Shown here piece by piece: positions 1,635 to 6,295 of a DNA stretch of 32,000 nucleotides. The notes under the pieces are model-generated. The model made no database searches. It was not told the origin of the DNA and worked only from the letters and a program-made list of their open reading frames with translations. Every line of letters begins with the position of its first letter. The stretch's first letter is position 1. The position numbers and the translations under genes are program-made. The DNA is from Candidatus Saccharimonadota bacterium (GTDB lineage Bacteria; Patescibacteriota; Saccharimonadia; Saccharimonadales; Saccharimonadaceae), in assembly GCA_002421785.1 (NCBI GenBank), contig DIRZ01000002.1:30001-62000 (forward strand). Reading direction: 5' to 3'.

Positions 1635-2918
1635 ATGAACATCTACTTTTCGGGTATTGGTGGCGTGGGGCTGGGGCCTCTTGCCGAAATCGCGCGGGAT
1701 GCCGGACACACGGTCCGTGGCAGTGACGCGCACGAAAGCCTCACTACAGCCGAACTGCAAAGTCGCGGCATCACGGTTAGCAACGATCAGTCAGGCGACT
1801 ACCTTGCCTACTGCCACGTGCAGCAACCCATTGAGTGGCTAGTGTATACTTCTGCCCTCCCCGACAACCACCCCGAACTCGTAAAAGCACGTCAACTTGG
1901 CATCTACACAGCCAAGCGTGATGAGTTAATTAATTACATCATCAAAGAAAAGAACCTGAAGCTGATTGCCGTCGCCGGTACCCATGGCAAAACAACAACC
2001 ACTGCCATGCTGGTGTGGACATTCCGCCAACTTGGAATTCCCGTCAGTTTTTCGGTGGGCTCTAATATGAGCTTTGCTCCAAGTGGTTACTTGGACCCAG
2101 ATGCCCAGTATTTTGTGTATGAGTGTGACGAATTCGACCGTAACTTTTTACATTTCACTCCCCACCTATCGCTCATCACTAGTGTCGATTACGATCACCC
2201 CGACACCTACCCGACGCAGGCAGATTATGCCGATGCGTTCACAACGTTCCTCGGCCAATCAAAGCAGGTTATTATGTGGGACCGCGACACGGTTATTAAT
2301 ATTGTGCCACCCCATGGAACATGGCGACTCCACGAACCCGACATCATTGACTTCAAAATACCCGGCGCCCACAACAGGGCAAACGCTACGCTGATTGCCA
2401 AGGCATGTGAGTACCTAAAAATTGGTGACGAATCACGCATTCGAACCGCTATCGAATCATTCCCTGGCACAGCGCGCCGGTTCGAAAAGCTCGCCGATAA
2501 CCTTTATAGTGACTATGGCCATCATCCGGTAGAAATTGCCGCGACACTGCAGCTTGCGCGCGAGCTCTCCGACCACATCGTGCTCGTATACCAGCCGCAT
2601 CAGAACACCCGGCAGCACCAGGTGCGAAGTGGCTACACCTCATGCATGGAGCTGGCAGAAGAAATATTCTGGCTCCCTACCTACCAATCACGCGAAGACC
2701 TGAACCTTCCGATTTTGAAACCCGAGGAGCTTGCCGCTCGTCTTACGAACCGCAATGTCGTCACCTATGCCGATATGAACGATATGTTATGGGACCACAT
2801 GACCTGGGCGCGCACCAACGGAAAGCTTGTCCTGTGTATGGGCGCAGGTAGTATCGACGCATGGGTGCGAAGTCAACTTGCGGCGACCGCCGATGTTACT
2901 CCAGCTATTCCGTCGTAA
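1635..2918 (+). CDS. murC: Mur ligase family, UDP-N-acetylmuramate--L-alanine ligase-like (MurC; Mpl not excluded)
   Basis: 427 aa. It has the N-terminal dinucleotide-fold motif FSGIGGVGLGPLAEIARDAGHTVRGSD and the Mur-ligase P-loop IAVAGTHGKTTTTAML. DYDHPD and HNRANA motifs are in MurC-like positions. Confidence 0.75.
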   Translation: MNIYFSGIGGVGLGPLAEIARDAGHTVRGSDAHESLTTAELQSRGITVSNDQSGDYLAYCHVQQPIEWLVYTSALPDNHPELVKARQLGIYTAKRDELINYIIKEKNLKLIAVAGTHGKTTTTAMLVWTFRQLGIPVSFSVGSNMSFAPSGYLDPDAQYFVYECDEFDRNFLHFTPHLSLITSVDYDHPDTYPTQADYADAFTTFLGQSKQVIMWDRDTVINIVPPHGTWRLHEPDIIDFKIPGAHNRANATLIAKACEYLKIGDESRIRTAIESFPGTARRFEKLADNLYSDYGHHPVEIAATLQLARELSDHIVLVYQPHQNTRQHQVRSGYTSCMELAEEIFWLPTYQSREDLNLPILKPEELAARLTNRNVVTYADMNDMLWDHMTWARTNGKLVLCMGAGSIDAWVRSQLAATADVTPAIPS

Positions 2919-3573
2919 ACTCTTCAAAAAAGAATGTATCACCGAAAAAGCTTCGGGTCACAATTTGCTCAACCGCAGGGGCTAGCCGTAACTTTGGTAA
3001 ATCGAGGGGCTCTACCCACTGCAAATGATCGGCAGCAGGAATGGCGTCTGTTTCGAAACGGATGATATGTGCGAGCGTCGTGCTCTCTACTTCGCCATCA
3101 GCCATCACTCGAATATAACAATCACCTACATGCCGTAACTTATGCGGGTCGAAGTCAAGCTTTTCGCGAGCTTCGCGGCGCGCCGCGTCAAGGAGCGTGA
3201 CGTCATCAATATGTAGCTTGCCATAAGGCAACGTCCACGTATTGATGTAGGGCTGCTTGGTGCGCTTTTGTAGCAATACCTTGCCATAGCCATCCTGAAC
3301 CAGCAACATGGTAATAATTTTTGGCTGGGTACGCATCTGCATTTTGTCAGAGCTGATACGATCAACGTAGCGAAGCCCCATACGACTCAGGGTATAGCCT
3401 TGGTCAGTTTTGGCGACATACCCCTGCTTTTGCAACAACTTTAAATGGTAGCTAAACAAATTCGTATCAACGCGCGGCGGGCACAAATCGCTAAACCTGG
3501 CGTATTCCTGAAACATTAGTAAACGAACAATCTGGCGCTGTATGTGGTGTTTTAACGTATCATTCTCAAACAT
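2905..3573 (-). CDS. winged-helix DNA-binding domain fused to a Nudix-fold domain with a degenerate Nudix box
   Basis: 222 aa. The N-terminus (IVRLLMFQEYARFSDL...LFSYHLKLLQKQGYVAKTDQGYTLS) looks like a MarR/ArsR-type wHTH. The C-terminal half holds a Nudix-box-like stretch, GKLHIDDVTLLDAARREAREKLDF. The first conserved Glu position reads D, and REAREK replaces REUXEE. Confidence 0.7.
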   Translation of the reverse strand: MFENDTLKHHIQRQIVRLLMFQEYARFSDLCPPRVDTNLFSYHLKLLQKQGYVAKTDQGYTLSRMGLRYVDRISSDKMQMRTQPKIITMLLVQDGYGKVLLQKRTKQPYINTWTLPYGKLHIDDVTLLDAARREAREKLDFDPHKLRHVGDCYIRVMADGEVESTTLAHIIRFETDAIPAADHLQWVEPLDLPKLRLAPAVEQIVTRSFFGDTFFFEEFTTE

Positions 3574-3663
3574 ATTTGACTCAAATCTTACTATCTATAC
3601 CCTATCATACTTATTGATTATAGTGAATATGTAATCTGTAAATATGAAAGGAATAGTGAAAAC

Positions 3664-4815
3664 ATGTCAGTCGAATCAATTACAATTACAAATGAGTTTG
3701 AGCAAAAGATACCCCATGAAGTCGAGCACAAATATATCCCAATTTTCCCTGAAGACCTAGAAGTATACCGATCGAGCGGCTGGCCAATTGAGCAGTTTTA
3801 CTTGAGTCACCCTAGCGAAAGCTTCAGCCTTCGGATGCGAGAAGAATTCAAGGATGGGACATTGCATTACGAAGCGACGTTAAAAGACACTGGGCATATT
3901 ACTCCTGACGGCATATCGCGCATGGAAATAACAACCCCCGTTTCCCCTGAGCTTTACCAGTTATACCGATCGCCCGACACGCCCGTTCTTCGCAAAATAC
4001 GTGCCGAGCCACTTCCGGGCGTGACCGTGGACTTTTACGAAGACGGCATGGTGCAAGTAGAGTCAGAGAGCCCTGCTAACTGGCGAGAGTTCGTGCGCTT
4101 GCACGGTGACAGATTCGTGGAAGTAACTGGTGATCGCAGTAGCGACAATGAATGGAAAGCGCACCTGAGCTTCCGACGCAGTAATAACGGCAACGAGGCG
4201 CTCAAACCCAGCGTCGATTTGGCCTCCAAAGACATCGTTAACGACATATTAGCTGCCAATAAACCGGGCGAGCCAACCATCCTGCACATCGCGGGGCGCT
4301 CTGGGTCGGGTAAATCTACCATCGTTCGCGAGGTCCAGGCTGACTTAAACAACCTCGGTGTTGAGTCTGTCGTGCTGTCTACCGATGATTATCATCGAGG
4401 CAATACCTGGCTCGTGAACTATAACGACGGGGAAGCTTGGACCAAATGGGATGACGCTGTCGTGTACGACACAGCCGCCCTGGCGGTGGACTTAGCCGAA
4501 CTACGCGCCGGAAGGCCCATCTGGCAACGCACCATCGACTTCAGTGTGTGCGAGCCAAAAATTACTGGCACCATCCAACCGGCGCCTGTTGTTATCATCG
4601 AAGGAATCTACGCGGGCAGTGCCGATATTGCGTCGCCAAACCACCTGAGCTACGAAATGACAACACCACTCGCGACCTGTGTTGGCCGACGACTGTTGCG
4701 CGATATGCGGGAACGACCCCAATTTGCCGACCCGGTTGCTAGTCTGGAGTACATGCTCCGTGAGGCTGAGCCGGCCTACCGCCAACAAGAAGCTGCCCGT
4801 GGAGCATCGAAATGA
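3664..4815 (+). CDS. CYTH (triphosphate tunnel metalloenzyme) domain fused to a uridine kinase/phosphoribulokinase-family P-loop kinase
   Basis: 383 aa. The N-terminus has the ExExK signature (HEVEHKY) and CYTH-like strands (IEQFYLS, SLRMRE, ATLKD, RMEIT, RKIRAE, VDFYED..VQVESE). The C-terminal half has Walker A IAGRSGSGKSTIV, plus STDDYHRG, VVIIEGIYAG and RRLLRDMRER, as in Udk/PRK kinases. AAAGGA lies upstream of the ATG. Confidence 0.8.
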   Translation: MSVESITITNEFEQKIPHEVEHKYIPIFPEDLEVYRSSGWPIEQFYLSHPSESFSLRMREEFKDGTLHYEATLKDTGHITPDGISRMEITTPVSPELYQLYRSPDTPVLRKIRAEPLPGVTVDFYEDGMVQVESESPANWREFVRLHGDRFVEVTGDRSSDNEWKAHLSFRRSNNGNEALKPSVDLASKDIVNDILAANKPGEPTILHIAGRSGSGKSTIVREVQADLNNLGVESVVLSTDDYHRGNTWLVNYNDGEAWTKWDDAVVYDTAALAVDLAELRAGRPIWQRTIDFSVCEPKITGTIQPAPVVIIEGIYAGSADIASPNHLSYEMTTPLATCVGRRLLRDMRERPQFADPVASLEYMLREAEPAYRQQEAARGASK

Positions 4816-5087
4816 AACGTGGCGAGATAGTCGAAAACCCCGGCTATCATGTACGTGAGATTCCAAAAGGTGTCATCGGCGAATCAAGCAAAATACTCGA
4901 AGAGGTGCTTGAACTACAAGATGCCGAAGATCAAAATGCTTCGATTATGGCATTGGTCGAATTATCAGATATGGTCGGAGCAATTGAGCTGTACCTTGAA
5001 CATCGTCACCCTACCGTTGCCATCGAGGATTTGCTGATCATGTCACACATTACCCAACGAGCATTCAAAAATGGCCGACGAACGTAA
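4812..5087 (+). CDS. all-alpha NTP pyrophosphohydrolase-like protein (MazG/HisE superfamily)
   Basis: 91 aa. It overlaps the upstream stop by ATGA. EEVLE at residues 30-34 and ELSD at residues 50-53 (ELQD lies between them) fit the paired acidic EExxE...ExxD metal-binding pattern of MazG/PRA-PH-type enzymes. Confidence 0.6.
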   Translation: MKRGEIVENPGYHVREIPKGVIGESSKILEEVLELQDAEDQNASIMALVELSDMVGAIELYLEHRHPTVAIEDLLIMSHITQRAFKNGRRT

Positions 5088-5694
5088 CCTTCCTCACTTC
5101 GAGCCGTCGCTGATTGACTACACGATTTTAGCAGATGGCCTACGCTTTTACACGAACAATGGCTACCCGTACCACGAGGTGCCATGGGTGGTACGACCAG
5201 AAGCCGTCAACGTTACACTACCACCAGGAGCAGAGGCGACCCGCAACCAGTACGGAGACCTCGTGGGCAGCGGTGAACAGAGCTTGATTGAGCTAATGAT
5301 GCGCGGCGAGCACATACAAAAAGCGTGTTGCATTACCCCGTGCTTTCGGCTCGAGCCAGCGTATGACGATCTCCACCATGGTTACTTTATAAAACTAGAG
5401 TTATTCGACACCCAGGCAACTGTGCCGACACTGATGGCAATGGTCGCTTGTGCAAGTGCATTCTATGAGCAGTACATACCAACAAATGTTGTTGAGACAG
5501 GTGTTAATATGTACGACATTGTTGATGCACATAACGGCATAGAGCTTGGCTCATACGGGTTTCGAACATGGAGCGAAGGCACCTTTACATACGGTACTGG
5601 CGTCGCGTTGCCACGGCTAAGCACGGTGATGGCGCAGGCTCAGGGCTCTAAGCCTGGTGAGCCCTCACAAAGTACGACGTACGTCCCTCACTGA
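5071..5694 (+). CDS. minimal class II aminoacyl-tRNA-synthetase-like catalytic core (SerRS-like), no tRNA-binding domain
   Basis: 207 aa; it overlaps the upstream gene by 17 nt. It shows motif-1-like NNGYPYHEVPWVV, LVGSGEQSLIEL, motif-2-like ITPCFRLEP...HHGYFIKLELF, YDIV..GIELGSYGFR, and motif-3-like YGTGVALPRLSTVM. The last roughly 15 codons read antisense into trmB. Confidence 0.6.
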   Translation: MADERNLPHFEPSLIDYTILADGLRFYTNNGYPYHEVPWVVRPEAVNVTLPPGAEATRNQYGDLVGSGEQSLIELMMRGEHIQKACCITPCFRLEPAYDDLHHGYFIKLELFDTQATVPTLMAMVACASAFYEQYIPTNVVETGVNMYDIVDAHNGIELGSYGFRTWSEGTFTYGTGVALPRLSTVMAQAQGSKPGEPSQSTTYVPH

Positions 5695-6295
5695 GCCAAC
5701 GCTGCTCATAGGTCGTCATGATTTTATAATCATCGTCTAACACAGATTCGTGCACATCAAAAGCAAGCTGATCGATACTCCACTTTTCGGCAACGAGCTG
5801 CTCTAGTGACCACGCGAAAAATGCTGGGTCGTCATGCTTCAGGTACAGCGCCCCACTCGAGCTAAGTAGCCCCGAATATTTCGCAAGGAATGTCGGGTGC
5901 GTCATGCGACGGCCGGCGCTTCTACTGCGTGGAAATGGGTCGGGAAATGTCAGCCAAACTTGTGACAACGAATTTGCTTCAAATAGCTCATCAACTTGAT
6001 CTGCGCGCGCCCGAACAAACGCGATATTCGTTACGCCACGTTCAAGCGCTTTATAGGCACCGTGTTGCAAGCGATCTGCCTTGACGTCGACAGCCGCAAA
6101 CATTTGCTCCGGATGGCGTGCGGCGAGCTCGACGCTAAATAACCCGTTCCCCGCACCAATCTCTACGACATCGACAGGACGCTTTTGCCACTCGGCAAAT
6201 TCGAAACAATTTTCGGCGTTGTGAAACTTCGCAAATTTATACTTTTTGCGTTTACGAGTAATAATAAAATCTTCGGGGTTGAGTATTTCTGACAC
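5648..6295 (-). CDS. trmB: tRNA (guanine-N7)-methyltransferase
   Basis: 215 aa with a GTG start. It has the SAM-binding VEIGAGNGLFSVELA motif and the TrmB signature WLTFPDPFPRSRSAGRRM. The layout matches bacterial TrmB. Confidence 0.85.
   Translation of the reverse strand: MSEILNPEDFIITRKRKKYKFAKFHNAENCFEFAEWQKRPVDVVEIGAGNGLFSVELAARHPEQMFAAVDVKADRLQHGAYKALERGVTNIAFVRARADQVDELFEANSLSQVWLTFPDPFPRSRSAGRRMTHPTFLAKYSGLLSSSGALYLKHDDPAFFAWSLEQLVAEKWSIDQLAFDVHESVLDDDYKIMTTYEQRWLSEGRTSYFVRAHQA

Follow-up and report, generated by a model that had tools for sequence, protein, structure and literature searches.

We analysed a stretch of 32,000 nucleotides from a Candidatus Saccharimonadota bacterium (assembly GCA_002421785.1, contig DIRZ01000002.1, positions 30,001 to 62,000), called the window below. 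Two overlapping open reading frames (ORFs) of the window, ORF3 and ORF4, are a widespread, mis-annotated and, as far as we could find, uncharacterised variant among the paralogues of class II aminoacyl-tRNA synthetases. An initial annotation had joined them with the preceding ORF2 and with a divergent gene encoding winged helix-turn-helix (wHTH) and Nudix domains into one nucleotide-handling module. Its observations are confirmed, whereas its interpretation is supported only in part. All four ORFs are present in the ORF list of the window exactly at the positions given, the overlaps between ORF2 and ORF3 (ATGA at 4812) and between ORF3 and ORF4 (17 nucleotides, 5071-5087) were confirmed from the sequence, and identical gene calls are on record for JAVTWT010000008.1 (GCA_032229745.1), a contig that is 99-100% identical. 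The locus very probably consists of two joined conserved units, the ORF3-ORF4 pair (4812-5694) and the CYTH-kinase ORF2 with the Nudix gene (2905-4815). Related loci are numbered L001 and so on, with positions of their own. The features of the pair are as follows.

4812-5087, plus strand: ORF3, 91 amino acids, small acidic all-alpha protein, probably HisE/MazG-like (phrog_6408)
4899-4913, plus strand: EExxE motif of ORF3, residues 30-34, invariant in the family and in the fusions, putative metal-binding site
4959-4970, plus strand: ELSD (ExxD) motif of ORF3, residues 50-53, second acidic motif, E50 and D53 invariant
5071-5087, plus strand: 17-nucleotide overlap of the ORF3 stop and the ORF4 start (ATG at 5071, TAA at 5085-5087)
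5071-5694, plus strand: ORF4, 207 amino acids, minimal class II aminoacyl-tRNA-synthetase-like core, similar to SerRS (phrog_4806)
5341-5355, plus strand: motif 2 of ORF4, CFRLE, residues 91-95, C91 and R93 invariant in 55 sequences
5593-5616, plus strand: motif 3 of ORF4, GTGVALPR, residues 175-182, with T176, G177, A179, P181 and R182 invariant

Pairing and distribution

In 100 of the 104 loci a member of each family is present, the two being on one strand and no more than 0.8 kb apart. Three of the four unpaired loci stop at a contig end just past ORF3, and in the fourth ORF3 was missed by the ORF caller. The order of the two genes varies: ORF3 comes first in 77 paired loci, ORF4 in 20, and the two are fused in 3. 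Where ORF3 comes first, overlaps of 1 to about 40 nucleotides are the commonest layout. With one fusion as the query, at least 25 fusions of 261-286 amino acids were retrieved. They are about 40% identical to the query, and their synthetase-like domain is always N-terminal. One of them was modelled with AlphaFold2 (AF2) at a mean per-residue confidence (pLDDT) of 91 and a predicted template modelling score (pTM) of 0.85. ORF3 and ORF4 almost certainly form a physical complex.

No third conserved neighbour was found. Clustering of the neighbouring genes by BLAST over 76 lineages yielded no other family present in more than five, and the Pfam domains of 146 immediate neighbours of the pair include no dominant family. 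Since pairing and fusion are strict and no third neighbour is conserved, we consider the pair a self-contained two-gene unit. The initial annotation had proposed that all products of the module act together. This holds for ORF3 and ORF4, given their co-occurrence, overlap and fusions, but not for the CYTH-kinase, which does not belong to the conserved module. The same is true of synteny in other genomes, which extends to ORF3 and ORF4 and fails for the CYTH-kinase.

A tblastn search of 50,697 phage records identified ORF4 in 276 and ORF3 in 278 of them, and thus the pair is found chiefly in large phages. The counts for ORF4 and ORF3 agree closely by host genus: Escherichia (112 and 113), Acinetobacter (61 and 59), Caulobacter (13 and 13), Microcystis (8 and 8), Brevundimonas (7 and 7). 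Among the carriers are phi92 (gp197/gp196), phAPEC8-like phages, T4-like phages of Acinetobacter, CcrColossus and Bacillus phage G. In distant homologues, phage-like contigs keep just the small ORF and the mini synthetase, with an overlap of 4 or 17 nucleotides. The earlier suggestion of nucleotide salvage in an auxotrophic reduced genome misses this distribution. ORF3 proteins of bacteria of the candidate phyla radiation are 51-76% identical to those of phages. The ORF4 proteins of Saccharibacteria form a tight group (53-64% identity), and their nearest viral relative is 43-48% identical. The pair also marks gene flow between large phages and Saccharibacteria.

The database names 'histidyl' and 'seryl tRNA synthetase' are misleading in more than 270 phage genomes. 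As the carriers include tractable cultured phages of E. coli (phi92, phAPEC8-like) and of Acinetobacter, the function of the pair is directly testable and the annotations can be corrected.

ORF4, a minimal synthetase-like core

The single ORF4 sequence has no match in Pfam, NCBIfam or the sequences of the Protein Data Bank (PDB). It matches phrog_4806 (2e-32), which is labelled 'histidyl tRNA synthetase' in PHROGs, and has 94 homologues of about 180-200 amino acids. The class II fold is predicted by AF2 with pLDDT 94. A Foldseek search with this model retrieved the catalytic domains of PylRS, SerRS and PheRS (E about 1e-9, TM score 0.6-0.7), and the top 15 PDB matches of the family profile are all SerRS, the best at 2e-5. 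Among 55 relatives tested against Pfam at E<=0.1, tRNA-synt_2 was matched by 31 and tRNA-synt_2d by 15, the protein of the window matching neither. The best E-value is 6.8e-08, which suggests that some relatives, not all, reach the Pfam thresholds; gp287 of phage G scores 58 bits with tRNA-synt_2b against a cut-off of 29.

ORF4 retains motifs 1-3, the adenine-stacking Phe and the acidic residue preceding motif 3. Positions R93, F106, K108, E110, E158, G160, S161, T176, G177 and R182 are invariant in the 55 relatives and, with the exception of G177, in the fusion proteins too. In the family profile, motif 2 is aligned to CFRxE of SerRS, FxKxE is conserved, and S-G-E-Q of ORF4 is aligned to the T-x-E element of SerRS, T(S/A)E(Q/V). 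In SerRS this element holds the amino group of the substrate.

The conserved core of about 180 residues spans residues 13-190, and the last 20 or so form a tail modelled with low confidence. The alignment and the AF2 model contain no N-terminal arm and no anticodon-binding or other tRNA-binding domain, the alignment to SerRS begins only at SerRS residue 180-230 or so, and the motif 2 loop is short. The initial reading of ORF4 as a class II synthetase core without a tRNA-binding domain is thus borne out by the model, the Foldseek search and the SerRS profile matches. To our knowledge, ORF4 would rank with the smallest class II synthetase cores in nature that have all catalytic motifs intact. 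This bears on the minimal size of a working synthetase, and on the way in which paralogues gain acceptors other than tRNA.

Some members of the family are larger. In CcrColossus gp133 (L020 5260-6114) the mini synthetase has an N-terminal domain similar to the RNA-polymerase alpha-CTD, and the Brevundimonas protein (L021 5227-6351) has 374 amino acids, with a long unassigned extension.

ORF3, the small acidic partner

The single ORF3 sequence likewise has no database match, and the assignment was made with families: ORF3 matches phrog_6408 (2.9e-35) and has 144 homologues. The conserved motifs are GYHxxxIPKG, SKIxEExxEL, ELSD and a C-terminal MSxxTxRAFxxGxR. Residues K27, E30, E31, E34, E50 and D53 are invariant, whereas S52 varies. 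EExxE is aligned to EEAAE of HisE (1yxb), K27 to the HisE Lys immediately before it, and ELSD to ELAD of 1vmg, which is recorded as a hypothetical protein and which we take to be MazG-like; each of the two structures is aligned over SKIxEExxE as well as ELSD. In the AF2 model of the fusion, the ORF3 part consists of three helices, and the acidic motifs sit on those at 196-211 and 215-236. Both families are acidic (median pI 5.3 and 5.4). The initial annotation had called ORF3 a MazG-like all-alpha protein. The invariant acidic motifs agree with this call and the profile matches are weak, and thus ORF3 is probably MazG/HisE-like, although this prediction is statistically weak. A carrier protein was also considered and rejected, as S52 is not invariant (Ala in several members) and lies in the middle of a helix rather than at its start.

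Several partners carry additional domains. In L036 (4299-5243) a single viral ORF directly upstream of the mini synthetase combines a radical-SAM domain (CNKDCNFC, GGGEP) with the MazG-like partner. In L092 (4998-5681) the partner carries, fused to its C-terminus, an RF-1-like domain (PF00472, E 9e-5, below the cut-off) that keeps the HxPTG...N-K segment and is missing the GGQ motif. The partners in L008 (5390-6013, Acinetobacter phage Octan) and L019 (5995-6630) have a C-terminal extension of about 125 amino acids with no Pfam match.

The CYTH-kinase and the Nudix gene

The other unit consists of the following features.

2905-3573, minus strand: wHTH-Nudix gene, 222 amino acids, divergent from ORF2
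3574-3663, no strand: divergent intergenic region of 90 nucleotides, read from the sequence
3664-4815, plus strand: ORF2, 383 amino acids, CYTH N-terminus and uridine/cytidine-kinase-like P-loop C-terminus
3712-4173, plus strand: CYTH domain of ORF2, approximately residues 17-170, ExExK (EVEHK) at residues 19-23
4237-4791, plus strand: kinase domain of ORF2, approximately residues 192-376, Walker A GRSGSGKST
4812-4815, plus strand: ATGA overlap of the ORF2 stop and the ORF3 start (ATG at 4812-4814, TGA at 4813-4815)

The C-terminus of ORF2 matches Pfam PRK (43 bits, cut-off 22) and UCK2 (1.8e-8). The NCBIfam uridine-kinase equivalog score is 64, below the cut-off of 180, so that uridine is only a candidate substrate of the kinase. 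The CYTH domain was not detected from the single sequence, nor with a profile of three. Among 1.8 billion representative sequences ORF2 has 74 relatives, nearly all of the same two-domain length. A profile of 50 of them matches the CYTH structures 2fbl and 3typ at positions 16-168 (E about 1e-9), and UCK2 (3e-24) and plant TTM1 (7z66, 7e-21) at positions 192-376; Pfam CYTH is matched by 14 of the 50. These profile matches agree with the original CYTH and P-loop kinase assignment, which is correct.

The domain call for the divergent gene is also upheld: it matches NUDIX at 1.7e-12, with a weak match to an N-terminal wHTH. The Nudix fold is matched, but the intact box GX5EX7REUXEEXGU is not. In eight of the nine homologues the box is degenerate (RREAxEKL), with Lys for the second Glu and without the terminal Gly; the exception is the homologue in L014, which has Leu at that position. 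The protein is probably a ligand-sensing regulator, in keeping with the degenerate box. It had been assigned to the whole module. However, the Nudix gene is the conserved partner of the kinase and a fixed syntenic gene of Saccharibacteria, not specific to the pair, as the two stand divergently side by side without the pair in L108, L109, L110/L111 and L112.

The place of the CYTH-kinase varies: it precedes the pair in the window, follows it in L011 and L012, and is missing from L001-L003 and L010. The closed Saccharibacteria-type genome CP060232.1 encodes, in this order, MurC, MazG (minus strand), Nudix (minus strand), small ORF, mini synthetase, TrmB (minus strand), again with no CYTH-kinase. 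In the more distant L014 an AAA_28 P-loop protein and the Nudix gene adjoin the pair. No phage locus has a CYTH-kinase beside the pair. In these varied layouts, the slot beside the Nudix gene, before TrmB in most cases, is thus taken by the kinase, by the pair or by both. ORF2, with its CYTH and uridine-kinase-like domains, and the wHTH-Nudix regulator form a Saccharibacteria-specific unit, presumably for salvage of nucleosides or polyphosphate.

Overlaps, non-coding regions and flanking genes

In the lineage of the window the pair directly follows the CYTH-kinase, and co-transcription of the three genes is probable. ORF2 and ORF3 were found coupled by ATGA only in the window's own contig and in one contig of 1.8 kb. 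In L105 the start of the ORF3 homologue at 1102 precedes the end of the upstream gene at 1105. The intergenic region at 3574-3663 presumably holds promoters and an operator; it contains no inverted repeat, and no match to a promoter consensus exceeds chance. Promoters, terminators and operator palindromes were sought in the window, and nothing exceeded chance. The window contains no Rfam family and no tRNA gene.

The locus is flanked by the housekeeping genes murC (1635-2918, plus strand) and trmB (5648-6295, minus strand). Its gene order is shared with metagenome-assembled genomes of Saccharibacteria, which assigns the window to this group. The 3' ends of murC and the wHTH-Nudix gene overlap by 14 nucleotides (2905-2918), with no mazG gene between them. 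In relatives, a canonical MazG gene (PF03819, about 111 amino acids) occupies this place (L001 6611-6946 and L108 2888-3226, both on the minus strand), and in one of them an RVT_1 reverse transcriptase is inserted between murC and mazG (L108 2037-2891). At the other end, the convergent trmB and ORF4 share 47 nucleotides (5648-5694), and the corresponding tail of ORF4 (residues 190-207 or so) is modelled with low confidence and is not conserved. The GC content falls to 0.456 at 3001-4000, which spans the Nudix gene, the intergenic region and the start of ORF2, compared with about 0.51 for the window. Beyond the window, a large serine recombinase is encoded about 5 kb upstream of murC (L104 462-2156, in JAVTWT010000008.1).

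Possible function of the pair

One possibility, to which we give about even chances, is that the pair is an obligate two-subunit enzyme in which an adenylating core with an acceptor other than tRNA is joined by a partner that cleaves nucleoside triphosphates (NTPs). The division of labour proposed here, with adenylation and transfer by ORF4 and NTP hydrolysis by ORF3, is more tentative and falls somewhat short of even chances; it is predicted from conserved residues. From ATP and a small alpha-amino acid, ORF4 would form an aminoacyl- or acyl-adenylate; it would hand the acyl group to its acceptor, which is unlikely to be tRNA because ORF4 is acidic and has no tRNA-binding module. ORF3 would cut an NTP between the alpha and beta phosphates, yielding a nucleoside monophosphate (NMP) and pyrophosphate, and would thereby supply or process the nucleotide partner. 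The logic would be that of phage NTP pyrophosphatases feeding nucleotide-modifying enzymes. The most specific form of this proposal, in which a class II synthetase of about 180 residues and a HisE-like pyrophosphatase make a novel aminoacylated or amidated nucleotide or metabolite, is doubtful. If it is true, large phages and genome-reduced Saccharibacteria share a pair with which they manage the host's economy of nucleotides and amino acids, or take it over.

The genes that recur around the pair mildly favour this biochemical reading. Canonical MazG, Nudix proteins, P-loop kinases, ribonucleotide reductase (RNR) and the radical-SAM fusion recur near the pair, and in one phage-like locus an AAA_33 kinase lies upstream of it. 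In phi92 a YqeY/GatB-like gene (gp195, L009 6840-7274, PF09424, 5e-7) lies directly downstream of the pair and is followed by anaerobic RNR genes. In Bacillus phage G the region just upstream (L023 1-3645, gp277-gp283) contains an NAD salvage cluster (nicotinate phosphoribosyltransferase, NaMN adenylyltransferase, NAD synthetase) and a KptA-like RNA 2'-phosphotransferase.

Several observations weigh against the two-subunit enzyme. The assignment of ORF3 to the pyrophosphatases is statistically weak: PRA-PH is matched by 23 of 43 members with a best E-value of 0.0017, below the Pfam gathering score, the two best PDB matches of the profile are 1vmg (E 0.18) and HisE 1yxb (E 0.6), and hhalign with the canonical MazG of the neighbouring genes gave E 0.15, with ELSD aligned to ELGD. 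Judged by eye, the SerRS Thr that reads the serine hydroxyl seems to be Trp or Phe in the ORF4 family. The remaining points, which come from a considerable minority of the phage loci, favour the main rival, a tRNA-related role. Here the substrate of the mini synthetase would be a tRNA or minihelix to be charged, or a tRNA whose end or base is repaired or modified, as by YadB, a truncated paralogue of GluRS; the small partner would be a cofactor. The closest sequence relative of ORF4 is SerRS. Of 58 viral lineages, 10 have tRNA genes no more than 5 kb away (11 of 60 viral loci). In six loci (L032, L039, L062, L070, L073, L082) the pair is embedded in a tRNA array, with same-strand tRNAs on both sides. 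RNA ligase is encoded nearby in four lineages and RlaP in three (seven lineages), immediate neighbours include MetRS, Tyr/TrpRS, a class I aminoacyl-tRNA synthetase, IF3 and the YqeY-like gene of phi92, and one partner is fused to the RF-1-like domain without GGQ. However, no neighbour of this kind is conserved, and tRNA, RNA-repair and nucleotide genes are grouped in large phages anyway. ORF4 has a short motif 2 loop and no tRNA-binding domain, both proteins are acidic, and the universal partner resembles an NTP pyrophosphatase, not an RNA binder. We therefore regard a tRNA-related role as unlikely.

The three-enzyme pathway that the initial annotation implied, with the CYTH-kinase, the MazG-like protein and the mini synthetase under the wHTH-Nudix regulator, would account for the overlapping genes with no terminator between them in the window, for the Nudix gene that always adjoins the pair in Saccharibacteria, for the P-loop kinases beside the pair in the window, L011, L012 and L014, and for the AAA_33 kinase mentioned above. 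But the kinase is missing from every other pair locus examined, its position relative to the pair varies by lineage, and it forms a unit with the Nudix gene alone in L108-L112, so that such a pathway is improbable. Slightly less credit is due to a sensor, in which the synthetase-like subunit would respond to an amino acid or ATP and regulate the NTP pyrophosphatase, as HisZ does for HisG. An obligate complex or fusion would suit this role, and paralogues of synthetases often turn into regulators, e.g. HisZ and SLIMP, but the residues for ATP binding and adenylation are all invariant in ORF4, whereas HisZ has no adenylation activity (PMC9437257). Acylation of the small partner or of another protein, as by PoxA on EF-P or by ligases that load a carrier protein with an amino acid (aa:CP ligases), also has precedents among class II paralogues (PMC9437257), and the adjacent partner has an invariant Lys. 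We consider it very unlikely: K27 corresponds to the HisE Lys directly before EExxE, the other candidate, S52, lies mid-helix and gives way to Ala in L005 and some fusions, and the conserved acidic motifs suggest that the partner is an enzyme rather than an acceptor. Finally, the frequent presence of the pair in accessory regions of large phages would fit a defence or counter-defence module using a nucleotide signal. This has hardly any probability, in view of the stable synteny among housekeeping genes of Saccharibacteria and of the lack of toxin-like or sensor domains; PADLOC found no match for ORF3 or ORF4, and merely weak generic matches for the Nudix and P-loop domains.

Comparison with known systems

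Neither PADLOC nor our literature searches yielded a match for the combination, in agreement with the initial annotation, which did not recognise it as any described pathway or defence system. We found no functional study of the pair in the literature, only mentions in genome annotations, such as a SerRS 'for protein synthesis' in phage RXM. A review of synthetase paralogues from 2022, which covers aa:CP ligases, PoxA, HisZ, asparagine synthetase A, SLIMP and YadB, describes nothing resembling it (PMC9437257).

The two proteins of the Saccharibacteria unit have separate parallels. The kinase domain of ORF2 is similar to that of plant TTM1/TTM2, as seen in the TTM1 match (7z66, 7e-21). TTM1 also has a CYTH domain, in the reverse order relative to ORF2. 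The differences are that ORF2 is bacterial and is paired with a wHTH-Nudix regulator. The divergent gene resembles NrtR, the Nudix-related transcription regulator: in both, a Nudix fold whose catalytic box is degenerate is joined to a winged helix. However, the domain order is opposite, with the wHTH first, and the NCBIfam 'NtrR' match is weak (E 0.0035), far below the family cut-off.

The NTP-cleaving half of the pair would have counterparts in MazZ-PurZ and in gp56-gp42 of T4, where an all-alpha NTP pyrophosphatase yields the NMP used by the next enzyme; such pairs are common in large phages. We know of no precedent for a class II synthetase core as the downstream enzyme, and modified DNA is not recorded in the annotation of the pair-carrying phages that we looked at.

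Other class II paralogues share single properties with the pair. The acceptor is ammonia for asparagine synthetase A and Lys34 of EF-P for PoxA/EpmA. Both are stand-alone class II cores with acceptors other than tRNA (PMC9437257), but they come from the AspRS/LysRS lineage, work without an obligatory small partner and have about 325-330 amino acids, ORF4 being much smaller. HisZ-HisG is likewise a class II paralogue in complex with a nucleotide-handling enzyme, and ORF3 resembles HisE. However, HisZ has no adenylation activity (PMC9437257), whereas the catalytic residues of ORF4 are invariant; there is no HisG here, and ORF4 is similar to SerRS, not to HisRS.

Of the known systems, the SerRS-like aa:CP ligase and the carrier protein adjacent to it come closest to the pair. 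These ligases have about 300 amino acids and derive from the methanogen-type SerRS, and the carrier partner is encoded in a neighbouring gene. The ORF4 core has about 180, and its partner is HisE/MazG-like, with no invariant Ser. Like ORF4, the ligases have lost the tRNA-binding domain, have kept adenylation and have a small partner (Mocibob et al. 2010, cited in PMC9437257); unlike it, they are zinc-dependent, and their partner is a phosphopantetheinylated carrier protein (PMC9437257).

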